From assembly GCA_032718475.1 (NCBI GenBank), contig JAUCBJ010005263.1, positions 1-36,144 on the forward strand: a DNA stretch of 36,144 nt. Reading direction: 5' to 3'. The stretch is from Nemertoderma westbladi. Lineage: Eukaryota > Animalia > Xenacoelomorpha. The stretch's first letter is position 1. Every line of letters begins with the position of its first letter. Made by a program: the position numbers and the translations under genes. Positions 2,746-36,144 of the stretch are shown in pieces. A model generated the notes under the pieces. It was not told the origin of the DNA, did not search any database, and saw only the letters and a program-made list of their open reading frames with translations.

Positions 2746-2990
2746 AATAAATTTGTTGCGGTACTAAAATAAACAACTGGTTTAATTGTATGATATTATG
2801 TGATTCTCCTGGCACTATTCGTACTGTATATCTGGATAGAGCTGTATAAACTCAAAGTGGTACCCTACCTTAACCAGAGCGTACAACAGCAGAACAGTAC
2901 AAAAGACAATACTGCAGCAATGTAAAAATTAGTGTTAGTCTACCTGTCTACGCGCTAACAGGCTAATGGTACATCTGTACTGTACATAGT

Positions 2991-4364
2991 ATGACATCTG
3001 TAAACGTAAACCCAAAGACTGTTGATAGCATCTCCGATTTACACCGCAAGGAGGGAAACACATTGTACGCCTCGGCTACAGAAAACCTATCAGCTGTTGT
3101 TCGACAAGACCGGCTCACTAAATCAGTTTCGGCCTACTACAAAGCTTGGAACACCGCCCTTAACGATAAGGAAAAGGCATCGGCGGCAAAGAACTACGGA
3201 TTGGCATCATGGCGTCTCGGGAAGATCCATCGGGGAAATGGTTCCACTGCCGAGTACGTCAACTACTTCTTCATGGAGGCCCTGTCGTACATGGCGAAGG
3301 CTGAAATCCACGGCAAGGAAGCCAGTCTAGATCAGCGCTGGTTGTCGCAAATCGAATTGCATCTAAATACCTTCCTCGACAGTGCCGTGAGTAACATACT
3401 ATGTGCTTCTGTGGGTGTAGTTGTCGGAAAGAAAGTGAACATGATTATCGGTATATTAAAAACTCTTCCTGAGAGAAAACATCATTTTCGACTTCATATG
3501 GAAATGGCTGGGTTGTATTTTAAGGACGGTCTCTGTCTCCTGTCTGCAGGCGACTATAAAGGTGCGTTGAATCGTATGTATGAATGTTACCAGCCCATAG
3601 AGGAAGCGAAACTGTGCACGGGTACCTGCAGCGACTCCTTTAGAAATGCTGAGATTTATTTACTACAGGAAGATGTTTACGTTCACAAATGTGTCGCTGA
3701 GTCGATGCAGATGCGAAAGAAAGGAGATGCTATCCTCAACCAGGTGTTACTCGAGGAGGAGAATCTTAATGTTACTCTAGTTTATGACGCCATTGATTGT
3801 TTCACCCAGTCGATTATTCTAACACGCGACAGAGACATTGAAGGGGAGGCCATTACTCACTCTCGCCTGGGGCTCCTTTACCATAATGTCTTGAAACTTA
3901 GAGAAAGAGCAAAAAGATATTTATTGGTGTCGGTGGAATTGGGTCATTCATTGTTCCCGAGGAATTTCAATACTGACGACTGGTTCGTAAAAGCGAAGAA
4001 AGTGTTGGAGGAGTACCAGAAAGAAACGACTGAGAAGGAACTCAGTGAGTATAATAAAACAAGACAACCATACCTCGATACACTCAAGGATGAGTTAGAT
4101 AAACTAGTCAAGGAATTTGAGAAAGATGCCATCGTCTTCCTAGAGTTCCTTTATAAAACTCACCCGCCTAAAAACAAGAATCTCGTTATGGCCCCTAAAC
4201 CAGATGAAATGACCCCCGAGTTTAAGAAGAAGGCCTTGCAGACAGCCATTCTGCATTACCATCCAGACAAACAGAATGTCGACGATCACGGCATGTTATG
4301 GAAGATCTTCTGCGAGGAAATTACCAAATGGCTAACCAATAAATATGAATATTTTAAGGGTTGA
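2991..4364 (+). CDS. Intronless 457-aa alpha-helical TPR-like protein with a C-terminal J-domain-like HPD motif
   Basis: Long ORF with higher GC than the flanks. TPR-like helical segments (AAKNYGLASWRLG, GDYKGALNRM, EAITHSRLGLLY). C-terminal KKALQTAILHYHPDKQ...FCEEITKWLTNKYE. TATA-like TATAAA near 2846. Confidence 0.8.
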   Translation: MTSVNVNPKTVDSISDLHRKEGNTLYASATENLSAVVRQDRLTKSVSAYYKAWNTALNDKEKASAAKNYGLASWRLGKIHRGNGSTAEYVNYFFMEALSYMAKAEIHGKEASLDQRWLSQIELHLNTFLDSAVSNILCASVGVVVGKKVNMIIGILKTLPERKHHFRLHMEMAGLYFKDGLCLLSAGDYKGALNRMYECYQPIEEAKLCTGTCSDSFRNAEIYLLQEDVYVHKCVAESMQMRKKGDAILNQVLLEEENLNVTLVYDAIDCFTQSIILTRDRDIEGEAITHSRLGLLYHNVLKLRERAKRYLLVSVELGHSLFPRNFNTDDWFVKAKKVLEEYQKETTEKELSEYNKTRQPYLDTLKDELDKLVKEFEKDAIVFLEFLYKTHPPKNKNLVMAPKPDEMTPEFKKKALQTAILHYHPDKQNVDDHGMLWKIFCEEITKWLTNKYEYFKG

Positions 4365-6760: not shown

Positions 6761-7859
6761 AAATAAAAAAGAATAATTCGGTTGGTTATCAACTACGATA
6801 TAAATATTATCTCGAAATCTCCCGAGTAAGTTGACTTCCTGACCTTGTGATGTTTCTTACTCTAATTTTTCATATTATTTATTTTCATATTATCTAATTT
6901 TACATATCATTGCTCAACAAATTACAAATACACTACATTACTGGATAAAAATTTGTCGACAGGTCCTAGCAAAGCTCTTATACTGTATGTGTCATTTATT
7001 TATATAGATTATTTCCAGTCTCTCTCTCTACTCTGGTTTTAAGCGCCAAAGTTCCAGGTCACAACCCACAAGTCCAGCCCCCAGACTTGTCTGACTGAAA
7101 CTGTTCCAGCTCCAGGTGGAATGATTTAATTTTAAATCAAAACTCGTCTGTGACCTGCTGTGCAGTGCATGTCTCGTCTACAATTCAGCGTTTTGAGTTT
7201 GATTCAGTCCGTTATTATTTATGCAAGCAATAATGACTAGGCCTATATATCAGAGTTCCACTCGCCACAACGCACAAGATACAACTCACAAGAATTTTTC
7301 AGATACTAATAATCGTAACATCCGTATGTAGCACGAGCACCTAGCACCTGACTTCCTCTTCCATGATTCGTGGATCCAATTGACATTAACAGCTCAGAAT
7401 CCAACTTCCGTTTCCTCTAAATATAGCTAGAATAGGCCTAATTCAGCACACAATATTGTAGCTTAACCTCATGCTTCCCTATTGGCTTCCCTGCTGGTAG
7501 GTAAGGCATCTATTCTGCTGCACTGCCGCAGGCCGGCAGGGGCTTGTTTTGTTTCCAAGAACTAGGCTACTGTACTAAACTACTCTACTTCCTAATTGTT
7601 GTACTTTACTGGACATGATGGGTGAGTACGGCAGTCGTCCTTCTGTCCTTGGCCACATGGCTAACATTCGGACTGTTCCACCCATCACTTTAGTACATAT
7701 TGCACACAACTTGATTTTACTCGTTCTTCTCCATTGTCATTTAAAGTTCAACGTTACTATGTAATTTTTATTAATGTAGTGAATGGTGGCCTTGTTCAGT
7801 ATTAAAAGAACGTAAAAATATTAATTGCAGTGCCGGAATAAGAATATAACAAATACAAC

Positions 7860-10539
7860 ATGTGCGATATTGAGGTTTCTGTTGAATTTTCCGTAGAAAT
7901 TGGAAAATTTTGGAATATAGATTTATTTCAGCGCGGCTATTACCACATTCGTTCCAACCTCTCCGCTGCCTCGAAGTTTCCCACCAAGTGCGAAGTATGT
8001 CTACCGCGCCCTGTCGCTCACAACCTCGTGTTTGGGTCAGCAGTATACAAAGACGTCGCCATATCCAAAACCTTTCAGATTCTCTACAAAAACGAAGATG
8101 TAGAAATTAACGACGTTATATCATTTAAAGTAAACTTCCTTGCCGACAGTCAAATTCTTTTAGAGTCAATAAACGCGACGAAGTTTACTCTTAATTTAGA
8201 TCTTTGGTTCGCGGATTCAACATGCGGCCCGGAACCGGAATTGATGCAATGCGTCAGCAGTCGCAGCCTACTACTCTCTCTCAACGTCTCCCACGGTCTC
8301 CACCACAGAGTCAACGTAATATTCGACTACTTCCACTTGTGCGCGATATCCGTAACGGTTCACGGACAACTAATCGCGATACACCAGCCCATCATAGAGG
8401 TTCCAAAATCTGAGAAATCCTCTAAGTGGGCGAAGAGGAAAACCGGACACCAAATGGTTGGATCAGAAGGACGCGAACACCCACGCACGTTGGAGGCATT
8501 ACTGTTCGGTCCATGCGTCAACGGTTTCAACAATTACCACTCCCCTTCGGACTCACAACTCAGACGCGCATATTACCTTCATAAAGCCATCCTTCTAACA
8601 ATCTTAGACTCGCATAAAGGTCTCCAGGACTCCGTTCGTGACCACGCCAAACAACTAAACTGCCGCCAACGAGTTTTGTTCGAGTTCTCTAACCCTCTCA
8701 TTAAACTCGATTCATTGGTGACGCACATCGCAACTCTAACGAGCTCGGACGACGTTGTAGCCACGGTGAACGCGGACATCTCACAGTGCTGCAGCGAGAT
8801 GTTCCTCTTGTGGACTCAGTTCCTCGACCTCGTTACAATGAACCCCGTAATCGATGTCTACCTCGCGAAACGGCACCACGTAGACCGCCTGAACCGCAGT
8901 CTCCACGGATTCGTTACGCGCTCCGCCGGCGTGTCCACTCGCTCGATCTGCACAGAATCCCCGCACAAACACCTCGCCTACGCCCACCACTTCAAGTCGT
9001 CCCAGTATATGTCGATGGTCCCGTCGCTACCAATAGAGTGCGTAGAATTAGACGGAGATTCTAACAATTTACCAATTATATTCGAGCAGATTTACAGTCT
9101 CGAGTTTGATAATTCGCCTTTTAGAACTCTTTCCCCCACGGAAATTCATCCCATGATCGATTCCACAGATATTATAGAAGAGTCCTCAGCTATACTGCCT
9201 CACTCTTCTGCAGTGGATCGTTCTCCTTCTACAGTGAATCCTTATCCTTCTGTAGTGGGTCCTTCATCTTCTGCTGTGGATCCGCTATCTTCTACAGTGG
9301 ATCCTACACCGTCTGTAGTGGATCCTCCATCTTCTGCAGTGGATCCCCCATCTTTCACCTTGGAGCCTCCTTCTTCTGCAGTGGATCCTCCATTTTCTGC
9401 AGTGGATCCTCCATCTTCTGGAGTGGTTCCTATGTCCTCTGAAGTGGTTCCTTTAGCTACTGAAGTAGTTTCTTCATCTTCTGCAGTGGCTCTTCCATCA
9501 CCTACTATATTTATTCCACCTTCAACAACACATATTACGCCTTATACACCGCCCGATAGTAGACTAAACGGGGATGATACAGCCGGTGTACCTAACGACT
9601 TCTGTGACATCGCACACGAACAGGTCGTTGATAACGACTCGATCATTGAGGACCCCGGGGATCTTATATCTTATAAAGTTTCAAAGAAAAAGGGAAAGTC
9701 GACTAAACGTAAACCGCGAAGCGCCACTTTCAGTAAATCCAACCCTAGAGATTCGCTCGATCTTTTCTTAAAGTCGATGCGGCGACACAAGTTAGCGAAA
9801 ATGTTGAAGCGACGTGGAATAAAGACGGATGAGCCGGTTGTGCTACTTGACTACCGCGAGTGGGACACCCCCAAGACGGCGGTCTCCCTCCCCAGCATTC
9901 ATCCCTCCTCCCCTCCCCTCCCCCCGCCTGCCCCCGCCTCCTCCCCCTCCCTGGCCCATTCTCTCCCCGATCTTGTCCACTCCTTGCTCACCAATCGCTC
10001 GTACACACGGCGGCGTACCCAGTCGGTGGGTTCCGCCTCCGACGACGAACATCTACTCGCCTGCCTCGAGTCGCTCCTGGACTCCGGACAACTAGTAGGC
10101 CGGAAACGCCGCGACTCTACCAAACAGTTCACTGACCTCCTCTTAGCGCTACGATCCTGTAACTACCAACTACCCGTGTGCAATACTTGTATGTGCTTTA
10201 AACTGTCGGAAGATTCCCTTATGCAGTGTCTGTCGCAGGGGCCGGCGGTACAATCCACCGATAGTTCAACAATGGAGTGCGACGGTTCGAACCAATCTCA
10301 ACTCCGATTCAACTCTGTTATGTCGGTAGTTTCGGAGGAGAGTTTGGTGTTGGAGAGTAAAGCGATTAACGGAGGTGTAGCTAAGGTCCCCGCGCTCGTT
10401 GCTCGGGCCAACACCACCGGCGACGCCGTAGAGCTGTGTCGGTGCGGACTGTACGACGATACCTCCGACGGTTCAACCGATCCCGAGATTGCGGCCCTCC
10501 CGGTGGGAAAGAAAATGACGAAAATACCGAGTAGATCAG
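7860..10539 (+). CDS. FAM135: FAM135 family protein, large first coding exon (N-terminal conserved region/DUF3657 plus low-complexity linker)
   Basis: N-terminus VEFSVEIGKFWNIDLFQRGYYHIR, SKTFQILYKNE and FDYFHL are typical of FAM135. Inferred donor AG|GTTCGT at 10540 (phase 1) joins in frame to the acceptor at 10782. Confidence 0.88.
9207..9500 (+). repeat. In-frame 21-bp coding repeat, 14 x SAVDPPS-like heptads within FAM135
   Basis: TCTGCAGTGGATCCTCCATCT-like units; the translation shows heptad periodicity. Confidence 0.85.
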
Positions 10540-10782
10540 GTTCGTTGCCTTGATAAGGAAATACCTACTTATAATATAATACAAATAAATATGAATGCTC
10601 GTTCTTTTGAAAATGACTCACCAAGTCGTAACCTATTTGATGATATATTTTCTGTATTACAGTCCCCGCTGAGTCGCTGTCGCCCAGAATTTCTAGACGA
10701 CTTGAAGTAACTATTGAATATAAAAAGAAATATTCAATACGTTTATAATGTAAATATTTAATGTGGAATTAAATTTGTTTAG

Positions 10783-11300
10783 GTATATTATCGGGTAAGT
10801 CGTCTGGTGTCGTCGGTAAAACCTGTTCGGTTTGTCTCCCTCTCAAGTCCTGTACGAAGGGAGGAGTTGAGGAGGAGCCATATGGAGAGGAGTTTGAGAC
10901 GTGGATGTCCGGCGACGAGGAACTTCCCCGGACGTTGGACGATGTGCGGAGACGCGTTCTCGACAACATCAACGCGAGCGCCTCCCGTCCGTGGAACTTC
11001 GTAGAACCTCTGGATCCCCGCACCTCCAACTGTCTCCCCTACTTCTCCCGCCCCGGTCACTACGACTCCGAGGACTCGGACACCCATCTTGTGGTCTGCG
11101 TCCACGGACTCGATGGTAACTCTACGGACCTGCGACTGGTTCGCACCTACTTGGAGTTGGGACTCCCCAACGTCCAGTTGGACTTCCTAATGTCCGAGTA
11201 CAACCAGTCGAACACGTTCACTGATTTCGAGTTGATGACGGATCGTTTAGTCGGAGAGGTTTTCCGTTACATCAGCAACTCTGGAGTCTTTCCTAAACGC
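10783..11300 (+). CDS. FAM135: FAM135 exon encoding the start of the DUF676 lipase-like domain
   Basis: Acceptor TTTGTTTAG| at 10782. Open frame through HLVVCVHGLDGNSTDLRLVRTYLELGLP. Donor CGC|GTAAGT at 11301. Confidence 0.85.
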
Positions 11301-11967
11301 GTAAGTTTGCTCGGTTAATTATTGTCTGTCTACCGACAGGTCAGTATTTCTTGGCGAAGAAAAAGTTGGACCTACAGAAATAAGGAAAGTAAAAAGTGTT
11401 CTTTAACTTATAGCTTAAATGCTATAACATACAGATGTTTACTACCCGAATGAAAGTAGTGAGTGAGTGCAACTTAGCAACAAGTATGTCTGTTTTTTTA
11501 TTTAAAAATAGTAACATTCCGCTTCGTATGACACTTGTGTTGTGGTTTTGTATGTAATATTGTTAGCTGACTTTCTCAAATTATTATTATTATTATAGGC
11601 TGAATGTCACTGTCCAAATATACCAAACTTCACATTTAAATGCATTTAATAATTATCTTTGCGTATTAAACTGCAAATGTATCATGTAATATGGTAGGTG
11701 TTCTTAGACAGTTAAAATGTAATATTGGTATATAATATTTTAATTCATTTGTAATTATGCATTTAATTTAGAATTAAATTTTTATAAACAAAGTGACTTG
11801 GGAAAGTGACTCATTTGTAGTTTTTGTTTTATTTTTTATTGGGCAAGTGACTTCACACCTTTTATAATAATACGGATTAATAAACATAATATCAAAAATT
11901 GTGTTATTTATATGGCTAGTATTTCAATTTATTATCATTTATATCCTGTAATTGATCTCTAATTTAG

Positions 11968-12561
<594 letters not shown>

Positions 12562-18448: not shown

Positions 18449-20228
18449 AACTATGCTTATTCCCCAGAAGTTAGTTATTTTCCCAGTTATTTAACCCGCG
18501 GGCAGGAAACAACCCGAGGGCGAAGCCCGAGGGTGTTCCTGCCCAAGGGTTAAATAACTGGGAAAATAACTAACTTCTGGGGAATAAGTAAGTTGTTACA
18601 CATTAATTATGGTATGCATTTCGATTATTTTTATCCCTTAACAACTATTTACAGATTCTAAAAGGGCATTGTTTGGGGGGAGAGTTTACAAAATGGGGCT
18701 TGGGAAGTTTTGGGGGTGTTTATATTGATTTTGCCCAGTTATTTTGCCCAAGGGAATAATAACACCCAAGCTCCAAAGGTAAAACATTAGGCCTACTGTG
18801 TCATGTGTGTTGTATAGCTCTATGCTTAATTAATCCAATCGCCGTAAGATTCGATCATCAAAAAAGCACCTGAATTTGTTAGTGAATATTGATGTCAAAC
18901 TTATTTAAATGGTTTACATTCTAAAATTCCTATTTTCTTACATTGGCCGCTAGGGGTAACACATATTTTCACATTTACATCTTTCGCCGGGAAAACTAAG
19001 TTCAATGCAATCCTAGGCCTACTGTATGATTAACTATTATTCCCTAGGGAAAAAAGTAGGTACTTCTTTTTCTCCACATTTTGAGCTATATTTAAGTTAA
19101 CTAAATAGTAATTAATATTCCCATAGTAACGGGTTGTTATGCCAGTTTTAAAAGAAGGATGTCACTTAGAGTCAACCAACACCTATCTCCGCTCCACTAT
19201 ATCAAAGTATGGTCTAGAAAATGTAGTGTTGGCTAAGAACTGCATAAAAGTAAAGTAAAGTTATATTTAAACGTGTAAGAAGAAACACCCGAGGCAACAA
19301 CCCAAAGGCTCCATTATCTTGGCTATTATCTGTAACGCAGGGAAGGCACCACACTACTCCCAAGGTCGAGTACTCTGGTTATCTAACCATATTCTTTACT
19401 CCTTAACTCATGACAGGTTGCCATTAGCCTACAGTACAACTGGAAGCTAGCAAAAATTTGGCTGTTCTGGGGCTTGAACACCAGACCTTCCGCATAGAAG
19501 ACCGGTTAATACTTTTTTTTTACTTTACTTTTATATTAAAACGTTTCAATGTCTGTATTAAAAAGGAAAAGGCAGAAAGAGGCGAACGTATTTAAACGAC
19601 ATTCTTAGATAGGCCTATCTTTTTTTAACATTTAGGAGGAAGGAACTGGAGAAACGCCTCACTGCAGTACGAGGTAGTACGGTACCTTGCAGCCTATATA
19701 AATACAGGCCAAACTAGACCTACCTGCAGGGCTGCAGGCTGCAGACCTGGTACGGTGCGACTCTGGACTGTGACACTATGTAGGCCTACTGTACCGGTAC
19801 CTCTTAATTTGCTGTGGAAATTGAAAGTTTAGTCATAGATCAGTGCCATCAGTATAATTCGTCAGTATGAGTATGACAAATGAGGTGATTAATGAGACAT
19901 AAATAGGCCTTGCTGTCTAGTGGAGCACAGCCCAATAATAATGAAACATGAAATACAAAACGCCCAATAATAATGAAACATGAAGTACAAAACTAGTCGG
20001 TGGTCTGAATACCTGATTTACACCTGATGTGACACACAACAGACCTAAGACGAGTACAGCAGCATTACCGGTTCCTATGTTTATTGTATGTCAGTATGTG
20101 GTGTCACGATAAACACTTCACTACTAAGAGGGAATAACATGGTTATTTTGCCCTAGGGCAAAATAACTTTTTTGGCCGTAGCCCAGCATTAGGGGTAGTT
20201 ATCATCCCGCTAATAAATGTGTAACAAC
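18449..20228 (+). mobile_element. Non-autonomous Crypton-like element with a 5-prime hairpin, ~1.8 kb
   Basis: Interrupts the minisatellite at GGAAGATAAC|GT, with AAC at both ends and empty sites at 20407 and 20586. Perfect 42-bp arms 18456-18497/18547-18588. Right end 20211-20228 is complementary to 18592-18609. No ORF, so the Crypton assignment rests on architectural similarity to 28583-32296. Confidence 0.75.
19250..19510 (-). mobile_element. Possible tRNA-derived SINE fragment nested in the Crypton-like element
   Basis: Minus strand near 19460-19500 reads GGTCTGGTGTTCAAGCCCCAG (B-box/T-arm-like). A short GTAAA repeat marks the other end. Confidence 0.35.
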
Positions 20229-21859: not shown

Positions 21860-24380
21860 TACTAGCTAGTTTTTACTAATTTTTATAAAAATGTTATAGA
21901 ACACGTGTTAGCCACCAAATTTGATAAATATTTTTGTTCTTAGAACACATTTTTATTTTTTTTACTAGCTAATTTTTTCTACTTTTTTTTATAAATGATC
22001 TAGAAATAGAACACGTTTTAGTTATCAATTTTGATAAATATTTTTGTTCTAGAACACATTATTTATGTTCTAGAACGCATTTACTATGTTATATCTTCTG
22101 TGAGGCATTAGCCATTGTTTTTTTATGGGTAACTAGTGATTGTTTGAGGGAGCTACTGTTTTTAAAATTACAAAACCAAATTTTTGTTACCTCGTTTTTT
22201 ATATATTTTTGGACCAAATGTTAATGTATATTATCATGATGTTTTTTGTTCTACAGCGTAAATTATTTGAAAATACTAGCTAAACTAATAAAAAGTACTA
22301 GCTAACACAAAATTAAAATTACTAGCTACCATATTACTGGCAGAAGAGAAGGTCAAATAATTGTTCTAGAACACAAAACCACATGTTAAAAGCCATTTTC
22401 ATATGAAAAAATTGGACAAAAGGTGGCTACCCATAACAAAGTAGGCAAAGTCCGCCTAATTCCAGTAAGAAAGACAAGGTAGGTACGATATTGAACCCAA
22501 TTTAAATGCCCTTAACGATAAAGATAATAAATCCTTTCTTCACATACCGAACGCTGATAAGTTGACATAATGTAACAAAATTACATACATCACTGAGTGC
22601 AAAGGTCACTTGTAAGCGTTAAAGGCCCTTGTTTGTTTATCTGAACCTCCCTCGCTCCGCTCGCTCGCTTATTTTATTTATGTTCTAGAAAAGTATATAA
22701 TACTTTTCTATTGTTCTAGAACTCTTCAATGCAGCAATGTTGCCTTAGTACAGTAGTAACAATGACATAAGTTTTAAAAACATAAGTAAATACATAAGTT
22801 CTATATGGTACTTTAGCCATATTTTTAGTGTTTTTGTTATTGGTGGATGTTCTAGAACATTAGTAGGTAATATTATTTATTATGGTAGCTAGAGTTTTTT
22901 TTACTATCTTAGTATTATTTTCTAGTTAGTATTGTTTGAAAAAATGTTTTAATACTTTTTTCTTTAATTACTTTAATATTAATACCGGTATCTAATTTCT
23001 ACTCATTCTATTATCTGAAAAAAAATTTATGCTAGAGTTCCGTATAGAACTGCAGTTTTAAAACATATGTCATTGTTACTATGGCAACATTGTTGAGTTC
23101 TAGAACAAATTAAAATTATTATATACTATTCTAGAACATAAATGAAATAAAAAATATAATGTTCTAGAACATATAGCTATTTTTTTTTAATTTTAAAATA
23201 GCTAGTAAATTTAAAAAAATATCCAATTTGGTAGATAAATTTTCTAATAAATAAATTATATAAATAAATAAATTTTTTCGTATTACTAGCTATTTTAAAT
23301 TTGAAAAATAACTAGCTATATGTTCTAGAACATTATATTATTTTTATTATTTATGCTCTACAGTAGAATAGTGTATAATACATATAATATTACATAAATA
23401 AAATAAAAAATAATAATGTTCTAAAACATATAGCTAGTTTTTTTTAATTTTAAAATAGCTAGTAAATTTAACAAATAATACAATTTGGTACCGGTAGATA
23501 AATTTTTTAATAATAATATATATAAATAATTTTTTTTTATTACTAGCTATTTTAAATTTAAAAAATAACTAGCTATATATTCTAGAACAATAATTTTTTA
23601 TTTTATTTTTGTATTAGAATAGTGTATATTATATATTTTTTGTTCTAGCACTCTTCACTGTTGCCATGGAAACAATGATTTATGTTATAAAAATGCAGTT
23701 CTATACGGAACTGTTACCAATATTTAATACTTTTTTTTTCTTTAAGTACTTTAATACAGTAATATTAATATCTAATTTCTACTCGTTCTAGTATATTAAT
23801 TGATTAGGAATAGTTCTTTAGTTCTTCAGTTTCTCCGTTAATAGAGCCAAACAAATTTCTTCAATACCAATATCAACCTCAATTGGTGTATTTTTATATG
23901 TATTTTGATGTTCAGACATAGCTAGCTAGAAAATCGTATAAAATCAAATATACAGAATATAGTTTAAATCGTATTATGTTTTTATAATGTTCTAGAATGA
24001 ATACAAATCACCATAACAATAATTGGTACTTCTGCAGTATACCCCCACACCTTGATATATGTTTTATCACTTTCCTTTACTTAGCGAGAATCAAAGAGAA
24101 AGGAAGAAAACAAATTTGAACATTTAATAAATGACATAGTACAATTGTATAAATGTTAAGAAATTGAGAGGGTGTGGGGGTATACTGCAGTAGTACCTAA
24201 TAATTTACAAAAAAAAAGTAATTTCGATATTATTATTATATTGTTTAAATACAATCCGATTTTTTTCGAAAAAAATGTTCTAGAAAAAAAAATATTTGTT
24301 GTAGAACATTATTTTTTTAAAATTAATAGCTAACATGTTCTAGAACACTGTCAAAAGATTTAGCAAAACCTAGCTAGTAT
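21860..24380. repeat. AT-rich region of nested inverted and direct repeats rich in GTTCTAGAAC and TAGCTAGTA motifs
   Basis: Hairpin ~23152-23340 is duplicated at ~23400-23610. Segment ~23032-23140 is inverted relative to ~22680-22810 and ~23610-23713. A 27-bp inverted pair lies at 24025-24051/24171-24197. Confidence 0.75.
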
Positions 24381-24644
24381 TAAAAATGTTGTGCGGGGTG
24401 TATGGCTGCCATAGTAGTACCAAATCTGATTCACCCAGTAAGAAGTTGGGGGAGGTCAAACTCATGTAATTTCATAAAAGTTTGTAGAAAATTGAAGAGG
24501 ATGGGTGGCATATGAATTAAGAGTATACATAAACAAAAAACATAGTATAAGTTACAACAACTAAATTCTAGGATTTGAATTCAATATCTGACTTACAATG
24601 TTTAAATAAATGTTAATTCAAAAGGAAATTAATCTGATGCTGAC

Positions 24645-27600
24645 ATGACAATGAAAAATAAAGAGGCGGGAGGTGAACCCTATCAACGTCCTTGTCATAA
24701 TTTACTTAAAAAGAGAAAGCGTCGAATAAAAATTGCAAATGTTCTTGCTGTTGAAACTATTATGGATAAGATGTTGTGGGCGATTGATACAAACAACGTT
24801 TTAAGAGTTGATGAAATCAATGACATTAACACATACTCTAAACCATTAATTCGACGACGTGGTTTTCGTCATTATTGTTTAAATAGGAAATGCCGTTTCT
24901 GTGCCAAATTTATCGGTAGCGAAGAATTTTGGTGCTCATCGCATAAACTTAAGCTTGGCCAATTTCCGCGGGATCTCCGAAATCCCAAATTAATTACTGT
25001 TATCGGTAGTGGAAATCTCAAACACGGAAAACCAAGTACAGCTAATAATGGTACAGATAATGGTAGCAGTAACAGTGTTGATATAGATAATGGTTCAACA
25101 CGCACCATTGATAACAATTTCAGAGTTCTTGATATGGTCTTAGGTGATGGAAGGATGCGTAAATCGCATTTACGTATTAAGAAAAATAAATGTTTTGTCT
25201 GCAAACAATTTGTTTCGAAGAAGGCATCACACTGTATGAAACACAGACTCTTAAACGCAACCAGAGCGCGTCATATATCAACGTTTAACCAGAACGTTTT
25301 ACCAGACCGGTTAACGGGGGAGAAGTCCGTTCTCAGAAGTGGCAATATTAATGGAGTTGATAATAACATAACGAATGTGTCTTTGAAGCAAGAGCAGGGT
25401 CACATGGATCCTTATTCAATGAGTGTCCATCAAGATTCTAACTTAACTCTAAAAAATATTTCAAGCGAGTCAGTTGGCAGAGTTGGTAATATTCATGGAG
25501 TTGATAACAACATAACGAATGTGTCTTTGAAGCAAGAGCAGGGTCAAATGGATCCTTATTCTATGAGTGTCCATCAAGGTTTTAACTTAACTTTACCAAA
25601 TATTTCAAGCGAGTCAGTTGTCAGAGTTGGTAATATTCATGGAGTTGATAATAACATAACGAATATGTCTTTGAAGCAAGAGCAGGGTCACATGGATCCT
25701 TATTCAATGAGTGTCCATCAAGATTCTAACTTAACTCTACCAAATATTTCAAGCGAGTCAGTTGTCAGAGTTGGTAATATTCATGGAGTTTATAACAACA
25801 TAACGAATATGTCTTTGAAGCAAGAGCAGGGTCACATGGATCCTTATTCAATGAGTGTCCATCAAGATTCTAAGTTAACTCTACCAAATATTTCAAGCGA
25901 GTCAGTTGTCAGAGTTGGTAATATTCATGGAGTTGATAACAACATAACGAATATGTCTTTGAAGCAAGAGCAGGGTCACATGGATCCTTATTCAATGAGT
26001 GTCCATCAAGGTTTTAACTTAACTTTACCAAATATTTCAAGCGAGTCAGTTGTCAGAGTTGGTAATATTCATGGAGTTGATAACAACATAACGAATATGT
26101 CTTTGAAGCAAGAGCAGGGTCACATGGATCCTTATTCTATGAGTGTCCATCAAGATTCTAACTTAACTCTACCAAATAATTCAAGCGAGTCAGTTGTCAG
26201 AGTTGGTAATATTCATGGAGTTGATAACAACATAACGAATATGTCTTTGAAGCAAGAGCAGGGTCACATGGATCCTTATTCAATGAGTGTCCATCAAGAT
26301 TCTAACTTAACTCTACCAAATATTTCAAGCGAGTCAGTTGTCAGAGTTGGTAATATTCATGGAGTTGATAACAACATAACGAATATGTCTTTGAAGCAAG
26401 AGCATGGTCACATGGATCCTTATTCAATGAGTGTCCATCAAGGTTTTAACTTAACCTTACCAAATATTTCAAGCGAGTCAGTTGTCAGAGTTGGTAATAT
26501 TCATGGAGTTGATAACAACGTAACGAATGTGTCTTTGAAGCAAGAGCAGGGTCACATGGATCCTTATTCAATGAGTGTCCATCAAGGTTTTAACTTAACC
26601 TTACCAAATATTTCAAGCGAGTCAGTTGTCAGAGTTGGTAATATTCATGGAGTTGATAATAACATAACGAATGTGTCTTTGAAGCAAGAGCAGGGTCACA
26701 TGGCTCCTTATTCTATGAGTGTCCATCAAGATTCTAACTTAACTCTAACAAATATTTCAAGCGAGTCAGTTGGCAGAGTTGGTAATATTCATGGAGTTGA
26801 TAATAACATAACGAATATGTCTTTGAAGCAAGAGCAGGGTCACATGGATCCTTATTCTATGAGTGTCCATCAAGATTCTAACTTAACTCTACCAAATATT
26901 TCAAGCGAGTCAGTTGTCAGAGTTGGTAATATTCATGGAGTTGATAACAACATAACGAATGTGTCTTTGAAGCAAGAGCAGGGTCACATGGATCCTTATT
27001 CAATGAGTGTCCATCAAGGTTTTAACTTAACTTTACCAAATATTTCAAGCGAGTCAGTTGTCAGAGTTGGTAATATTCATGGAGTTGATAACAACATAAC
27101 GAATATGTCTTTGAAGCAAGAGCCTGGTCACATGGATCCTTATTCTATGAGTGTCCATCAAGATTCTAACTTAACTCTACCAAATAATTCAAGCGAGTCA
27201 GTTGTCAGAGTTGGTAATATTCATGGAGTTGATAATAACATAACGAATATGTCTTTGAAGCAAGAGCAGGGTCACATGGATCCTTATTCAATGAGTGTCC
27301 ATCAAGATTCTAACTTAACTCTACCAAATATTTCAAGCGAGTTAGTTGTCAGAGTTGGTAATATTCATGGAGTTGATAACAACATAACGAATATGTCTTT
27401 GAAGCAAGAGCAGGGTCACATGGATCCTTATCCTATGAGTGTCCATCAAGATTCTAACTTAACTCTACCAAATATTTCAAGCGAGTCAGTTGTCAGAGTT
27501 GGTAATATTCATGGAGTTGATAACAACATAACGAATATGTCTTTGAAGCAAGAGCAGGGTCACATGGATCCTTATTCTATGAGTGTCCATCAAGGTTCTA

Positions 27601-27911
27601 ACTTAACTCTAACAAATAATTCAAGCGAGTCAGTTGTCAGAGTTGGTAATATTCATGGAGTTGATAATAACATAACGAATATGTCTTTGAAGCAAGAGCA
27701 GGGTCACATGGATCCTTATTCAATGAGTGTCCATCAAGATTCTAACTTAACTCTACCAAATATTTCAAGCGAGTCAGTTGTCAGAGTTGGTAATATTCAT
27801 GGAGTTGATCTTGATAATGATAATAACATTACGAATGTGACAGTAAAGAGAGAGCTGAGCGACATGAATCCATTCCATTCCATGAATGTGATAACCAAGT
27901 TTGTAACGTAA
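24645..27911 (+). CDS. Orphan 1088-aa putative nuclear protein: NLS, two CxxC-x10-CxxH zinc-finger-like motifs, 17 x 48-aa repeats
   Basis: Uninterrupted 3.27-kb ORF with a non-repetitive ~225-aa N-terminus. Contains KKRKRR, CRFCAKFIGSEEFWCSSH and CFVCKQFVSKKASHCMKH. No recognisable family. Confidence 0.6.
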   Translation: MTMKNKEAGGEPYQRPCHNLLKKRKRRIKIANVLAVETIMDKMLWAIDTNNVLRVDEINDINTYSKPLIRRRGFRHYCLNRKCRFCAKFIGSEEFWCSSHKLKLGQFPRDLRNPKLITVIGSGNLKHGKPSTANNGTDNGSSNSVDIDNGSTRTIDNNFRVLDMVLGDGRMRKSHLRIKKNKCFVCKQFVSKKASHCMKHRLLNATRARHISTFNQNVLPDRLTGEKSVLRSGNINGVDNNITNVSLKQEQGHMDPYSMSVHQDSNLTLKNISSESVGRVGNIHGVDNNITNVSLKQEQGQMDPYSMSVHQGFNLTLPNISSESVVRVGNIHGVDNNITNMSLKQEQGHMDPYSMSVHQDSNLTLPNISSESVVRVGNIHGVYNNITNMSLKQEQGHMDPYSMSVHQDSKLTLPNISSESVVRVGNIHGVDNNITNMSLKQEQGHMDPYSMSVHQGFNLTLPNISSESVVRVGNIHGVDNNITNMSLKQEQGHMDPYSMSVHQDSNLTLPNNSSESVVRVGNIHGVDNNITNMSLKQEQGHMDPYSMSVHQDSNLTLPNISSESVVRVGNIHGVDNNITNMSLKQEHGHMDPYSMSVHQGFNLTLPNISSESVVRVGNIHGVDNNVTNVSLKQEQGHMDPYSMSVHQGFNLTLPNISSESVVRVGNIHGVDNNITNVSLKQEQGHMAPYSMSVHQDSNLTLTNISSESVGRVGNIHGVDNNITNMSLKQEQGHMDPYSMSVHQDSNLTLPNISSESVVRVGNIHGVDNNITNVSLKQEQGHMDPYSMSVHQGFNLTLPNISSESVVRVGNIHGVDNNITNMSLKQEPGHMDPYSMSVHQDSNLTLPNNSSESVVRVGNIHGVDNNITNMSLKQEQGHMDPYSMSVHQDSNLTLPNISSELVVRVGNIHGVDNNITNMSLKQEQGHMDPYPMSVHQDSNLTLPNISSESVVRVGNIHGVDNNITNMSLKQEQGHMDPYSMSVHQGSNLTLTNNSSESVVRVGNIHGVDNNITNMSLKQEQGHMDPYSMSVHQDSNLTLPNISSESVVRVGNIHGVDLDNDNNITNVTVKRELSDMNPFHSMNVITKFVT
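25325..27810 (+). repeat. 144-bp tandem repeat, about 17 copies, in frame
   Basis: CACATGGATCC-like anchor recurs every 144 bp from 25401 to 27705. Confidence 0.95.
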
Positions 27912-29199
27912 CTCAATCAATGCCTACGGCTACAATAATTATGCGAGTAAAAGAAGAGAGTTAGTGGCGGCCACATGATCACAGCGGATGTAACAAGAGC
28001 TCGAAAGGTTGCTTGGTTCAAAAGACATTTCACAGACGCATGATGAGAAGATTTATGTCCGGCCAACTTCTTTTAGGATGTGAACAATAACCTATCTCTC
28101 TACTAACTTAAATGTTCCAAAAACTACTAGTTCTTCATGAATTGTTATTAATATTTACTTTCCCATTTTGATTGTAGTTTCAAGTGTATTCGTATTCTAC
28201 AGTACTAGAGTGTGGGGCGAGCCACGCAGTTAGGTGAGCCTTTATGTCGTGGTATAATTAGTGGGCCATTTGTCGTCGTTGGAAAAGTTTGAACCTAATA
28301 AGCTATAAATTATAGATGAAACGGAACAAAACTTGGCACAAATGTAGTCTATCAAATGTTTAGAAATTGTAAAGACTGACTTATATAGTTCCTCTGCCGG
28401 CCGCTAGGGGTAATATTATAAGAACCCTAGAAGAGGCTATAATAATAGTACTGTATAATTTCATATTAATCTGAAATTTGGTAGGAGTGACCTAGTCCAT
28501 TAATTTTAATGCTACGCAAAGGCTCATCTAGATTTATGCTGTTCGAACGTGTACTGTACTTATGCAGACTACTGTATAATACTGTTTATTGTTAATTTTC
28601 GCATATTGCTACGGAAACTAGCTAAAATTATAATCGTATAATTTTAAAAAAATGTTCTATAATTGTTGTATTATACCATTTTTTCCTAAAATTATACTCT
28701 TTTCTTAGAAATTGCTCTGATACGGGATTCTAGAAAATATATGTTGCAGTATATTCATATAATTTTATGTATTATCCTATGGTACAGCAATATACCAAAC
28801 TTGCTACGGTTTCTTTCAATAATGTACTGTAACTATATATTTCACATTAAGCAAAATGACCATCCCAATAAGATTCACAGATTGGCACTTTAAATTCTAA
28901 TCCAGTATTCGTAAGAATTATAACTCTTATTACAATCTGACCTCACCAAAAGCCGCGCGAGCATCATTAAATTAGATAGAAACGGCATAAAAAACGGAAG
29001 ATCGTTTCGTTGTTTGCGATCTTATTAATTTAATTAAATTTTACTGGGGGGGGGGGGGGGGGGGGGGGAATAATCATTATTATGAATATCCATAGTAAAG
29101 TTGGCTTATCTTTATTAATTTATCAGTGAAAAGAGTCTAGAAAATAATATAACGTGATTTCTGCAACAATTTATTAAATAGATAATTAAAAAAATCTAC

Positions 29200-29425
29200 A
29201 GTAGTTGCACAAATTCGGTCGTCCTTACGACTCATTTCCAGTATAGACCCCACAGAACTATACTCCTTACAGGCAAAGAGATAACTGGTACTCATTTAAC
29301 GACCATTTAATTAACAAAGCATATATGCGCCCTGGTTTGGTTAGTCCCTTTAAAGCATTTGTGCCAAAACGAAAACTATCCTGGCCCGCCTGCAGGGGTA
29401 GAACCCCACGACCTCTGGAGCGATA
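29200..29425 (-). mobile_element. Possible tRNA-derived SINE fragment
   Basis: Minus strand GAGGTCGTGGGGTTCTACCCCTGCAGGCGGGCCA (T-arm-like) followed by AAATGAGTACCAG, a motif seen in invertebrate SINE cores. Confidence 0.4.
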
Positions 29426-29541
29426 TTAATTCAAGGAAATGGATTTAAATGCTACGCAAGGCTTGAAAAAATTGAATATATGCGTGTTTGTATTAGAACA
29501 CGATCCTTAAAAATACAAAGTATGCTGTCATGTTGTTCGTT

Positions 29542-29807
29542 CAATATGCTCTAATTAACAATAAACATACAATATTGCAATGTTCTAGAGTTAATATACA
29601 TACAATATTGACTTTGACTTTATATTATCCTTCAGCAAATTAACCTAATATAATAACCTCGGCCTGCGGCCTCGGTAATTATACAGGTTAATTTGCTTCT
29701 GGAACGGCATCAGTGATTATTCAGTTTCATTCGCTTCAGGTTATTATTTCCGTATATTAACTCTAGAACATTGCAATATTGTGTTTATTGTTAATTTGAG
29801 CATATTG
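29542..29807. repeat. Internal copy of the Crypton hairpin with an intact end-to-end junction
   Basis: Arms 29542-29599 / 29752-29807. 29625-29788 is a 164-bp direct repeat of 32133-32296 with 4 mismatches. Confidence 0.9.
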
Positions 29808-29992
29808 GAAGTACTACTAGCGTAGTGTATGCGTTTAAAGCCAATTTTTAGGATGAGTTCCAATACAACATGGTTATTTTATTTATTATTTCACAGTTAA
29901 ATAGTATGTTAAGCATATTATACTGTATCATTTTATAGTATTTTTAATGTTATTACGAAGAAAAACGCCTAATGAAATTACACCGATACAAG

Positions 29993-31724
29993 CTATATTT
30001 TGTAATAATTTATATTGACATTTGAGTTATTTATAATAGGTGGAGGAAATGTAGACGGGTAATTATAATTCCTCATCAAACCAAAGTTTATCCCTGAGCC
30101 TCCAACACCTGGGTATCCTGGACTTCCAACACCCTGTACACCTATACCAACACCTGTGAAGGCTGACCCTCCTACACCACGAAATCTTTGACTTCCAACA
30201 CCTGGGTATCCTGGACCTCCAACACCCTGTACACATAGACCAACATCTGTGAAGGCTGACCCTCCTACACCACGAAATCTTTGACTTCCAACACCTGGGT
30301 ATCCTGGACCTCCAACACCCTGTACACATAGACCAACACCTGTGAAGGCTGACCCTCCTACACCACGAAATCTTTGACTTCCAACACCTGGGTATCCTGG
30401 ACCTCCAACACCCTGTACACATAGACCAACACCTGTGAAGGCTGACCCTCCTACACCACGAAATCTTTGACTTCCAACACCTGGGTATCCTGGACCTCCA
30501 ACACCCTGTACACCTAGACCAACACCTGTGAAGGCTGACCCTCCTACACCACGGAATCCTTGTCTTCCAACACCTTGTATACCAGGATCTCCAGCACCAG
30601 TGAACGCCCTGAAACCTGGATTGAGAAATTGTCCTCCACCTAAATGTCCAACACTCTCTACTTCTTCAAGAGCCGCGATAAGCAATTCATCATCATCATT
30701 GGCAATGACATGGATATCCATTTCAGGAGCAAAGTTGTCGATATTGTCTATTCTACGTTTTTTTGAGAAGACAGATGACAAGCTGTCAAACATTTCTTTC
30801 TTTTTAATTTCAGAGCATGCAGTGCATGCAGTGGTTGGTGTATTTTTGACTAAGCTCTAAGTTAACACAGAGATTGGTCATAAATCCAGCTAATGTGTTG
30901 CGTCCAACAATCCTTCCTTCATACCACATTTTGTCTCTCACTTGTGGTTTCTGGCGTGGCTTCTGCCACAAACAAGCACTTTGAGAACTTAGCTTTGATA
31001 CATACAACTCATATGAGTGCAGCGGGCATTGATCGTCGTCAGGGTTTTCATAAAGCCGCCCTTCGTTTGCAATAGCCGTGTCATTGCGGACATGATTCTT
31101 ATCAAGCTCATCCATTCCTTGTTCTAAATAGCGTAATCCAGTGGAATGGTCTACTTGAATAGCAAAAGTGCTTTTAGTCATTCCATAGAGATTTTCTCTT
31201 CCCCTGCGACAAAAGAAATATAGTATATAGAACAATACACTTTGCTGAAGCTTCTTAGGTTCACAAAGAGTTTTATCTATTGTGAAGTATTCCTTTATCT
31301 TTATAAGATCTTCTTCAATGATTTGCCTCTTATTCATTATAACGGCCTTTCCTTGCTTTTTTGTTTCTACACTCATCGCCGTAAACATCAGGTTAGCTTG
31401 ACTAAACTCACTATCGCTAACTATATCAATATTGCGCTCGATTTTGAAATGTCTATTTAAAGATGCACGGATGGCTTTCAGTGAGGTGAGTTTGTAAAAA
31501 GAATTATCTTCCTTTCGAATATTTGAATAAAATTCAAAGAGCAAACTAGGTAGATCGTCATTGCTCAATGATGAAAGATCTCCTTTACCAGTTTCTTTCA
31601 GATACGATTGTAGTATCGCTATATGAGAACTCGTAGCAAGTTTGGTATTTTTGCTAATTCTATTATCTATTAAATAATTCTGTCTTTCAACAGAAACACT
31701 TTGGAATCTGTTTGTATAAGACAT
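29993..31724 (-). pseudogene. Crypton tyrosine recombinase (DUF3504/KCTD1-ZMYM-related) gene with a deleted catalytic C-terminus, split into ORFs 30810-31724 and 29993-30793
   Basis: Motifs YKLTSLKAIRASLNRH, FFCRRGRENL, DELDKNH, CPLHSYELYVSKL, LWQKP, WY..RIVGRNTLAGFM and YTNHC, then a stop. The downstream frame carries SEIKKKEMFDSLS and the C-terminal INNSNVNINY motif typical of Crypton YRs. Confidence 0.85.
30100..30600 (-). repeat. 93-bp coding tandem repeat (~5 copies; 31-aa Gly-rich GVGGSAFTGVGLCVQGVGGPGYPGVGSQRFR)
   Basis: TGTGAAGGCTGACCCTCC recurs at 30155, 30248, 30341, 30434 and 30527. Confidence 0.92.
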
Positions 31725-32053
31725 TTATATTTGTCTTTGTATTATTATTATACTATAGCTCATGCCACTACATTAATTTGTATTAAATATAATGTAATGT
31801 ATATTTTCTAGAATCCCGTATCAGAGCAATTTATAAGAAAAGAGTATAATTTTAACATTTATAGAACATTTTTTTAAAATTATACGATTTTTTTAAAATT
31901 ATACGATTATAATTTTAGCTAGTTTCCGTAGCAATATGCGAAAATTAACAATAAAAACACAATATTGCAATGTTCTGGAGTTAATAAACGGAAATTATTT
32001 CCGTTTATTGTTAATTTTCGCATATTGCTACGGAAACTAGCTAAAATTATAAT

Positions 32054-32291
32054 CACAATATTGCAATGTTCTGGAGTTAATATACGGAAATAATAACCTT
32101 CAGCGAATAAAACTGTAATAATCACTTCTGCCTTATCCTTCAGCAAATTAACCTAATATAATAACCTCGGCCTACGGCCTCGGTAATTATACAGGTTAAT
32201 TTTCTTCTGGAACGGCATCAGTGATTATTCAGTTTTATTCGCTTCAGGTTATTATTTCCGTATATTAACTCCAGAACATTGCAATATTGTG
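32054..32291. repeat. Terminal hairpin of the Crypton (46-bp perfect outer arms, imperfect inner stem)
   Basis: 32054-32099 is the exact reverse complement of 32246-32291. Apex motif at 32165-32183. Confidence 0.92.
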
Positions 32292-33416
32292 TTTATATTG
32301 GATCACAATATTCACTGATTAAACTGTTGAAAAACGAAAACCGTGGTTACCTGCGACATTACATAATAATAAACGTTTACCTGCGACATTACATAATAAT
32401 CTCAAGACTCACATTTTCCGATACATTTATCAGGGTATCGGTTGCGTTTATCACAAATGCGAATCCGACAAGCCAATTAATTTTAATGAAATTCTAGGCA
32501 CAAAATGCTGTAATCATGAGTTTTCGTTTAATAGCAGGAACATCAAGAGTGAACATCATGGGAAATTGTATTCCCGCCAGGTTGTTAATTCCGAATGTCT
32601 ATACTTGACCCCCCCCCCCCCCCCCCCCCCTCTCTAGGCTGTTAGAGATTTACTTAATTAATAGTAAATCAATAATATTATTGATATATTGGCCTAGATT
32701 TTAATTAGTTTACTACGAATTTGCGTATTCCAGCTGTCAAACCGCCAACTATCACACCTGTCACACCCACTATACTCAAATCTAAACTCTACTGCGACGT
32801 CTTATTCACCGTTCAACGCAACCTAAGTGGAGGTGGTGTTCGTTTTTACTCCGCTACAATGAAATAATGTGCATTATATATCAACCATGGACCATCACGG
32901 TTACACATTTTTCCTGCAGTAGTCCTAATAGGTTTTTTATACTTTTAATAATTATTGCTCCAATACGGGATTAAATAGCCGTTAAAAATCAAATTTGCCC
33001 GAATATCAATAAATTAGGCAGCTAATCGCAAAAGCTTAAACTACAAACAAAGCGCAGCTCTTCAGTGACGTCACATGGGCGGCCAATGGTGAGGGGGGAT
33101 AATGTGTAAATATTACACCCAACCCAACCTATGCATATTTTATTTTGTAAATTTAAATAAATTTATTTTATTCTTCCGAAGAGAAACCAGTATTAAGTAT
33201 TTTGTCATGCATAACGTACAAATGAAAATGAAACTAAAGTGTTAAGATTAACACCCTTGATAGAGAAATAGCCTCTTACTTAATTTCTTTCATATCCAAT
33301 CACTTTATAGTTCTGTCAATCTAGGCAAAAATGTGAGTTTTTTTATTCTATATTATCTTGATAAAATACCCCGAAAAAGTATATAATAACTATAAATAAT
33401 TCATTGTGTGAATAAC

Positions 33417-34649: not shown

Positions 34650-35778
34650 TCATTGTTGACCCTTAATTAACATCTTCATGTAATATTCCCGGCCCTGTAA
34701 GACGATCTCACTAGTGGCCCGCTGGCGCAGTATCTAAAGCCTAACTCGTCAGCGACATCCCGCCAATAGGAGAACCGCTCTGGGGTCACGTATTCCTTCA
34801 CCTTAAGATGCCTTTTGGTTGGCTGTTGGTACTGACCGAGAGTTAGGCAGTCTACTCCCACCAATCTGATATCCCTGAGGGTCTCTCTGATTTGCTCGTC
34901 GGTTTCGCCCAATCCCAGCATCACCGATGTTTTAGTAAGTAGATTCTGATTGGTGGATTAGCATGACGCAGCACGGCCAGCGATTGGTCGTATTTGGCGC
35001 GCGGGTCGCGCACATGCTGTGTCATTAGGCGCGTAGTTTCAACGTTATGAGCGAACACGTCCAACCCGGATGACGTCACCGTATCCACAGCAACGAGGTC
35101 CCCCCTAAAGTCTGGGACCAAACACTCTATCAACATGGTAGGTTTCGCTCGCTTCGTTTCGCGTACAGTCGCGGCGATGTGCGCGGCGCCGCCGTCCACC
35201 AGATCGTCGCGATCTACCGAGGTTATCACGACGTAGTCCAACCCCCACTCCGATATAGCCGCGGCGGTGTTCCCGGGTTCGTTTGGGTCCGGAGGCGGCG
35301 GATTTCGAGAAGTTTTCACGGAACAGAAACGACACCCTCTGGTGCACTGATCGCCGAGCACCATAATCGTGGCCGTCGCAGAACCTTCGGCGCCCCAACA
35401 CTCACCGATGTTAGGGCACTTAGCTTCTTCGCACACCGTATTTAAGTTTAACTTCCTCAGCGACTCCTTTAAGCGATGGTAATTTTTTCCAGACGGAATC
35501 TTCATCTTTATCCATGGCGGGATTCTCAACCTCTCGTTGGCTGCTGTTATTTTAAGTTTACCGCCGTATTCTGTTACTTTGTCTTCCTCTATCGATCGTT
35601 CTATGAAATCATCGAGGTTAGGGCCTTGAGTTAGTTTCTGTTTCTGGGATTGCGATAAAGAAGATGATTTAGCGTATACAAAGTCCACCGGAAGTCCGTG
35701 TCGAGAAGGAGGACGTTTCGTCTCAGATGATTTCGACAGATTAATAAAGTCATACCGGTACTGAACATAATCCAACAC
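34650..35778 (-). CDS. LIAS: Lipoyl synthase (radical SAM) with two apparent 1-bp deletions; 5-prime end uncertain
   Basis: [12 protein letters not shown] (CX4CX5C), CTRGCRFC (CX3CX2C), [30 protein letters not shown] and GPLVRSSY. Restoring one base at ~34958 and one at ~34689 gives ...[17 protein letters not shown]... and ...[15 protein letters not shown] (stop 34650-34652). Confidence 0.9.
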
Positions 35779-36144
35779 AATGTAGTCTATAATAGTAACA
35801 AACTAAAGATAAAATCACTCAAATGAAAGCAAAGTTGACTAAGCACCATCGTTACATATTATTAATTTCTTTTTTCAATTATGACTGTTTGTAAATAAAA
35901 TTTCAGTTGGCCTAAATAAATTATTGTAGCTTTCAAGTCTAAAGAAAATTATAAAAATCTAATATGAATAAATATTAAAGGGGTCCATAAAAGTAAAAAA
36001 AATAATGCATTTTATTTACAATATTCAACAAGCCTTATAATCAGTTAAATATCCTATATCAAGCAGCACGGTACCGACTGACCGATAATGTGTAAACTAA
36101 GTATAGTAACCGGTAGGTAATAACCAAGAATCAAACAAGGTTAC

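Follow-up and report, generated by a model that had tools for sequence, protein, structure and literature searches.

Can a Crypton, an element built around a tyrosine recombinase, hold an internal complementary region (ICR) of the kind known from DIRS retroelements? The question is raised by positions 28583-32296 of a 36,144-nucleotide stretch of Nemertoderma westbladi DNA (contig JAUCBJ010005263.1; the whole stretch is the window), which are bounded by TGTTTAT, end in a hairpin and begin with about 160 bp that recur inverted just inside that hairpin. The original prediction, made from the letters alone, saw here a single Crypton whose fused ends rebuild a giant palindrome. Our analysis shows instead that the locus is a head-to-tail pair of two CryptonA copies of one family (Table 1): unit A (28583-29788) is a derivative without gene, made up of a left end, a recombinase remnant, a 26-bp junction mirror (complementary to the joined ends) and a hairpin, and unit B (29782-32296) is a copy of the same family that codes for the recombinase. 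The coding body of unit B (~29789-31955) has most likely been inverted between the terminal site (core at 29782) and its own internal mirror at ~31955. We hold this anatomy together with the flip to be quite probable, and as an explanation of the locus overall a head-to-tail pair with a flipped coding body seems likely.

The locus ends where other family copies end

That the locus belongs to a Crypton was borne out by the minus-strand frame from 31724, which encodes a DUF3504 protein (PF12012 above cut-off, E 6.7e-9; 3728 relatives at E <=0.001) and identifies a CryptonA. This DUF3504-type tyrosine recombinase is the coding content of the element: the open-frame list for 28583-32296 holds no other coding frame of note, no transposase was found in the element, and frame and domain checks of it revealed neither reverse transcriptase or RNase H nor inverted terminal repeats (TIRs). 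The predicted TGTTTAT direct repeats were likewise found at both outer ends (28583-28589 and 32290-32296), with a third plus-strand copy at 29782 and a copy in inverted orientation at 29561; within 28000-33000 the motif occurs three times on the plus and once on the minus strand, and all four are junction sites. Present at the internal join as well as at the two outer ends, the 7-bp repeat is compatible alike with a terminal repeat and with a target duplication.

Evidence on other copies comes from contigs of the sequencing runs X1-X4, of which X1 and X2 are one sample, possibly the window's own source, such that X3 and X4 only are independent runs; X4 holds a small share of the family, X3 covers no right flank and X4 little of it, and a coverage gap proves nothing. 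Depth over the gene is 612 in X1 (31-84 in the flanks) and 290 in X3 (14.5), which, depth being a rough guide to copy number only, points to roughly 10-20 gene copies. On the left, an X1 contig with unique flank reaches as far as 28609, so that shared sequence begins at ~28580, and three X1 contigs whose flanks are unrelated start at the core (agreement 0.64). On the right, depth drops from thousands to 46.6 just beyond 32296, two X1 contigs (~1 kb, unrelated flanks) leave the arm at 32285 and 32290, and three more do so at 32297. Since other copies stop at the same points with different flanks, a check that the original prediction had itself proposed, the outer ends are family ends, and the family is an interspersed, multicopy one with fixed ends and variable flanks.

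Each unit has its own left end, mirror and hairpin

Between the outer ends lies a second, uncut palindrome (29532-29817) that the original prediction had missed, together with a recombinase remnant (28889-28972) and a deletion that breaks the unit B gene. The right arm and tip of this palindrome (29625-29788) repeat 32133-32296 in direct orientation at 98% identity. Recombinase residues 63-90 match the remnant by tblastn (68% identity, E 3e-7), and DNA matches at 28789-28814 and 28882-28972 are collinear with 31651-31455. Unit A also has a mirror at 29542-29567, which is complementary to 28583-28608 at 23 of 26 positions and identical to the unit B mirror at 18 of 19. Left end, two gene pieces and mirror of unit A follow each other in an order collinear with 31955-29782 on the minus strand, that is, with the unit B body read backwards, so that the ~160-bp match amounts to two ordinary left ends facing each other. 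Hence, the complementarity behind the proposed ICR is real (69 of 69 bases between 28585-28653 and 31887-31955; 93% over the 69-base block 28687-28755 against 31786-31854; BLAST inverted match of 28585-28794 to 31955-31746, 80%, E 2e-48), but an ICR design it is not, the family left end being present twice. Nor do the 270-bp arms reflect such a design, as they consist of the left ends of a copy without gene and of an inverted coding copy, and the span taken for one element holds two, each with a mirror and a hairpin of its own.

Contigs of the family agree with this assignment. The inverted left end of unit B begins 231 bp upstream of the recombinase ATG, the family's gene contig extends into it as far as 31829 (three runs), and the gene-side mirror contig starts at 29778 with the core attached in all three gene-holding runs and at a depth at least that of the gene. 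Since gene contigs reach both left end and mirror, the 160-bp 'ICR' is the left end of the coding copy and 29789-29817 is its mirror. An internal region complementary to both joined ends does exist, consisting of the 26-bp mirror and the foot of the hairpin, so the predicted internal inverted copy of the joined ends is present, though at ~26 bp and not 160; by sequence comparison the true junction mirror appears short, 26 bp here against 11-46 bp in relatives. It also follows from this inverted copy that a circularised element would hold two inverted crossover sites, as had been proposed.

Unit A-type DNA occurs without the gene: in X4, parts of 28677-29567 and the hairpin are covered while depth is zero across 29837-31840, and a contig that runs from 29565 into 32082 is present in each of X1-X3. 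At several sites (28865, 28955, 28956, 29148), unit A departs from all compared contigs. Within it, 29338-29420 is a separate high-copy repeat with its own edges in contigs, whose motif we take to be B-box-like, possibly a fragment of a short interspersed element (SINE). The left arm of hairpin A has suffered a partial duplication and a deletion. As this odd left arm recurs in X3 contigs (depth 689), and as two extra bases next to the unit A mirror are absent from the gene-linked mirror contig, hairpin A belongs with unit A. This bears on another route to the same end product, in which a coding copy inserted in reverse into the mirror of unit A and the hairpin at 29569-29782 flipped later. Such a history would fit the 29565-32082 joint in X1, X2 and X3, read as an uninterrupted host element, and template switching is able to flip the spacer that an inverted repeat encloses (PMC8604942, in the part accessible to us, as for all papers cited here). 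The joint is, however, equally explained by an intact unit A-type copy, and the two extra bases and the partial left-arm duplication go with the unit A mirror whereas the gene-linked mirror lacks them, so to our minds insertion into the mirror is improbable and we keep to a pair joined head to tail.

The recombinase of unit B

Contigs of X1, X2 and X3 have 101 letters where the window has seven (30818-30826), so a 94-bp deletion is private to the window copy. It shifts the frame, removes the stretch with catalytic R, H and Y and, judged by sequence, would leave this copy's recombinase dead: motif comparison shows that the first R and H are retained and the last R, H and Y gone. The full motif (H-x-x-R...H...Y) is present in 79 of 183 proteins (database matches plus the window's two frames). 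Otherwise the unit B gene is identical to X3 contigs over 444 and 430 nt (0 differences). Its C-terminal tail contains 93-bp tandem repeats (30101-30598) that are open on both strands, their translation being Gly-rich on minus and Pro-rich on plus.

For a full-length relative, a structure model (mean pLDDT 78) found its best structural matches in QRICH1 and Cre, with a template-modelling (TM) score by target of 0.67 for Cre as against 0.46 for integron integrase (rank 38). No protelomerase was among the 30 matches listed of 62 (E <=0.001) in the fold search with this modelled relative. Together with the Cre-like fold and the integration of the element between ordinary flanks, this speaks against the resolution into hairpin ends that had been envisaged.

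Hairpin polarity and a probable inversion of the coding body

Self-comparison and folding confirmed the predicted right-end hairpin (32054-32291), whose span can be drawn as 32048/32054-32291/32297. In both hairpins of the pair it is the minus strand, the sense strand of the gene, that bears the GA/GA mismatches and the GTA or GCA loop. Relatives differ. A profile scan of metagenome contigs gave 422 of them, the best 80 of which were retained and fall into 48 clusters, and in 18 clusters a hairpin stands 320-930 nt past the gene match (29 clusters extend for 700 nt or more downstream, and 16 of the 18 belong to them). One representative per cluster was scored: in 16 it is the antisense strand that bears the tandem GA/GA mismatches, in none the sense strand, and two are undecided; the gene points toward the hairpin, and none of the 18 scored relatives has a hairpin of this polarity from which the gene points away. 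The window hairpins hence share one strand polarity, opposite to that of the relatives with respect to the gene.

The left ends of the relatives lie ~190-630 bp upstream of the recombinase match. Pairing of mirror to left end covers 11, 14, 13 and 14 nt in four families whose left boundary was set by flank divergence (three have similar ends, leaving about two independent cases), and 37-46 nt, above all 200 shuffles, in four other clusters; among the relatives measured, no mirror comes near 160 nt and none exceeds 46 nt. The usual layout in relatives is left end, gene, short mirror, hairpin, end, and in one locus (L071) the left end is immediately preceded by a hairpin arm. At E 1e-3, no retrieved relative locus resembles the element in DNA sequence. 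With the window protein alone as query, metagenome contigs returned 589 pattern matches, none of them confirmed; alignments used as queries retrieved no relative from viral contigs, nor any from prokaryote genomes (64 matches, 0 confirmed), and the hairpin-tip pattern had one viral-contig match with no hairpin around it.

Since the gene of the relatives runs toward the hairpin and is reversed here, the coding body has most likely been inverted. One inversion of 29789-31955, from the core at 29782 to the inverted core at 31953-31961, accounts for layout and polarity, and reversing it in silico yields a canonical element. Diagnostic bases confine the exchange to ~33 bp around the core, and both breakpoints fall inside a 67-nt inverted match of 90%. 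Fusing the ends in silico does lengthen the stem, as predicted, but pairing is not continuous, being interrupted by two extra bases (31953-31954), a fold-back duplication of ~98 nt (31960-32054) and a rearranged block (~31854-31889). While this fusion leaves the junction stem devoid of GA/GA, undoing the flip gives the resulting junction stem a GA/GA of its own, the fourth, in register and on the strand that bears the other three.

Two of these interruptions are local. The X1 junction contig of the fold-back duplication has a depth of 78.6, near that of a single locus and far below the 612 of the gene, and a high-depth contig lacks the two extra bases at 31953-31954, which are therefore local. 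Window base 32094 differs from 5679 of 5707 of X1 depth, in the direction that perfects the stem. From this change and the near-single-locus depth of the duplication we conclude that arm-to-arm copying has acted at the locus. A contig with a 7-bp spacer (depth 2525 in X1, 986 in X3) could be mirror, tandem join or circle. Taking the high-depth contig without the two bases as tens of exact end-to-end joins is unproven, as it may end before the distinguishing bases, and a conserved 2-base bulge at the crossover was dropped as a feature because spacer length varies between copies.

How the pair arose may be envisaged in two steps. One unit would have inserted at the end of the other, which we infer because the element end carries the core, and a single flip would then have set the left end of unit B against its hairpin, with the long palindrome as a by-product. 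The FLP/FRT and Cre/lox systems invert a segment between two oppositely oriented core sites, and here, too, inversion would have taken place between two opposed copies of the core. The FLP/FRT-like inversion foreseen by the original prediction is plausible and appears to have happened; there is, in contrast to the amplification also foreseen, no evidence of amplification at the locus. The flip may be the work of the family recombinase acting in trans or of the host, whose template switching or recombination would have used the ~33-bp inverted homology; the two are not separable here. Either way it shows a route by which CryptonA elements may rearrange themselves and build long palindromes, and it raises a testable question: does the mirror recombine?

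Several observations weigh against this picture. No contig spans either breakpoint uniquely, the orientation of other gene-bearing copies was not directly seen, and no empty site or circle junction was among the contig joints and ends listed. Computed folding energy is similar for both strands, so the strand bias lies in the mismatch pattern only. As for the relatives, 13 of the 29 clusters reaching 700 nt or more downstream show no hairpin at the BLAST threshold, and only 7 of 25 testable loci have a mirror match that <=2 of 200 shuffles attained, one of these matches being probably spurious. Locus L041 has, upstream of the gene, an 89-nt inverted copy of the hairpin right arm (998-1086) that gives it TIR-like ends, and L026 breaks the layout in that a short tip upstream of the gene has the opposite polarity, which may mark another flip. 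In L026, positions 1-90 and 2934-3000 form a direct repeat that flanks the gene, with the polarity of the small hairpin tip opposite between copies.

The first of these points would suit a flip that is an artefact of assembly or amplification at inverted repeats, the breakpoints being inside the 67-nt, 90% inverted match. We find this hard to credit, since the fold-back junction near breakpoint 2 is present in X1 contigs with 0 differences (31957-32030), and the window resolves an array of more than 20 units of 144 bp, which suggests that long reads were used. A single 3.7-kb Crypton, with a 160-bp internal template and 270-bp arms by design, might still be argued from outer ends that are real termini with the same core and pair 69 of 69 once fused; moreover, the pair may have moved as a unit after the flip, in which case several copies could share the arrangement. 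Yet the long match is the family left end, found 5' of the ATG in the gene family's contig, unit A is complete as an element, with a gene remnant, mirror and hairpin of its own, and no relative has a mirror >46 nt or an outward gene at this hairpin polarity (18 scored). In addition, unit A has diverged from the contigs and the gene is identical to X3 contigs, unlike one amplified unit. We therefore consider a one-element design very improbable and retain two units with an inverted coding body.

Relation to known Cryptons and DIRS elements

In the accessible text of Kojima and Jurka 2011 (PMC3212892), no terminal repeats are found in animal Cryptons, all CryptonA ends are given as not determined, and the words 'hairpin' and 'palindrom' do not occur in the main text. 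The locus shares with the CryptonA elements and non-autonomous derivatives of that account a DUF3504-type recombinase as sole gene, a size of ~2.5 kb, and derivatives without gene that keep both ends and outnumber coding copies; it adds a 7-bp direct repeat, a strand-polar terminal hairpin, a short mirror, the head-to-tail pair and an inverted body. Eulor5/Eulor6 and salmon Crypton termini (PMC5753468) are a further case of Crypton terminal sequences that non-autonomous families conserve, the source linking Eulor5/6 to Crypton termini with no structure given in the accessible text, and the part of PMC12130899 at hand has nothing further on Crypton ends.

With the ICR of DIRS elements (PMC6681497, PMC13465315) the locus has in common an internal segment complementary to the left start and the right end of a tyrosine-recombinase element, but it lacks reverse transcriptase/RNase H and long inverted terminal repeats, and its mirror adjoins a terminal hairpin. 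The ICR is assigned to DIRS both in PMC6681497 and in a 2026 Glomhopper paper, which, as far as its accessible text goes, allows Cryptons short direct repeats only. Our literature search, which left uncovered Repbase/Dfam, Goodwin 2003 and later reviews that may describe it, came upon no account of Cryptons with a hairpin or junction mirror, and the natural flip of a coding body is the apparent new aspect here. For curators, it is of note that a flipped or stacked copy creates false long inverted repeats and false boundaries.

What the hairpin and mirror may be for

How Cryptons move is a model drawn from short terminal repeats. The end design seen here (core, left end, short mirror, strand-polar hairpin) names two candidate substrates, a double-stranded junction and a folded antisense strand. 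Integron attC sites are recombined in the form of folded single strands that are chosen by unpaired features (PMC5027507). By analogy, the antisense strand of an excised circle would fold such that the joined ends pair with the mirror to form the substrate of the recombinase. That hairpin and mirror exist for this reason strikes us as nearly an even prospect, if on the doubtful side. Like attC cassettes (PMC5027507, PMC3458562), the units show an imperfect palindrome with strand-specific unpaired features, completed by the two ends of the unit, and stack head to tail. They differ in that a CryptonA unit can carry its own recombinase, that the fold of the enzyme is nearer Cre, that tandem G.A pairs and GNA loops replace conserved extrahelical bases (2-base bulges vary between copies), and that the system is known here from sequence alone. 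A folded-strand step is further weakened by the equal computed energies of the two strands, by the 7-bp direct repeats, which suit ordinary double-strand exchange, by a relative's fold that is Cre-like rather than IntI-like, and by the lack of a conserved bulge at the crossover.

Recombination as an ordinary double-stranded circle (Goodwin model) is the rival, to which we would give a considerable, albeit clearly less than even, chance. Hairpin and mirror would then have another role, in priming or initiating copying of the circle or as a second recombinase site, and template switching, which homogenises the arms and inverts the spacers of inverted repeats (PMC8604942), would keep the arms identical. 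The 7-bp end repeats fit the exchange described for Cryptons (PMC3212892, PMC13465315), a flip between inverted double-stranded sites is Cre-like action by an enzyme of Cre-like fold, and arm-to-arm copying is visible at 32094; left unexplained, however, are the one-strand GA/GA mismatches in 16 of 18 families and in the mirror-junction stem. More tentatively still, CryptonA elements might be eukaryotic integron-cassette-like units in which the mirror is a live crossover site and the family recombinase both inserted the unit and flipped its body, a view that we find doubtful. If true, the locus would be the fossil of a site-specific inversion by a Crypton, its crossover marked to ~33 bp around TGTTTAT.

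Table 1. Features of the CryptonA pair, by position in the window
Feature	Coordinates	Strand	Basis
7-bp core TGTTTAT, left outer end of pair	28583..28589	+	sequence; X1 contig ends
Family left end (L), unit A	28590..28755	+	homologous to sequence just 5' of recombinase ATG in unit B
Recombinase gene remnants in unit A, pointing toward hairpin	28789..28972	+	tblastn and DNA matches
Short internal mirror of joined ends (true ICR-like segment), unit A	29542..29567	+	complementarity to 28583-28608
Terminal hairpin, unit A	29569..29782	+	98% direct identity to unit B hairpin arm; fold
7-bp core, A/B head-to-tail join; putative inversion breakpoint 1	29782..29788	+	
Short junction mirror of unit B, now inverted	29789..29817	-	176 bp beyond stop codon
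CryptonA tyrosine recombinase gene (DUF3504), broken at 30818-30826	29993..31724	-	PF12012; contig comparison
Family left end, unit B, inverted; 'ICR' of the original prediction	31786..31955	-	upstream of ATG
Inverted core and 2 extra bases; putative inversion breakpoint 2	31953..31961	-	
Local fold-back duplication (hairpin foot and 51 bp of left end)	31960..32054	.	X1 junction contig
Terminal hairpin, unit B	32054..32291	+	minus strand: three tandem GA/GA mismatches, GTA triloop
7-bp core, right outer end of pair	32290..32296	+	depth drop; divergent flanks

Surroundings of the pair

The left flank (28167-28530) is itself repetitive, at high depth, and weak inverted ends lie at 28231-28264 and 28497-28530; the pair thus stands beside or in another element. 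Further upstream, 18456-18588 folds into another long, imperfect hairpin, whose plus strand bears tandem GA/GA and a GAA loop; its sequence is unrelated to the element and it is probably the end of a different Crypton-type family. A very AT-rich foldback of ~700 bp at 22669-23799 shows 75% inverted identity, internal repeats and a partial copy (22669-22739). An open frame of 1092 codons (24633-27911) consists mostly of a 48-residue (144-bp) tandem unit, ~97% identical; no stretch of it passes alone in Pfam, and its matches look spurious. Host genes with long uninterrupted frames are present at 7842-12561 and 34921-35802, a DUF676/FAM135-like gene and lipoyl synthase.

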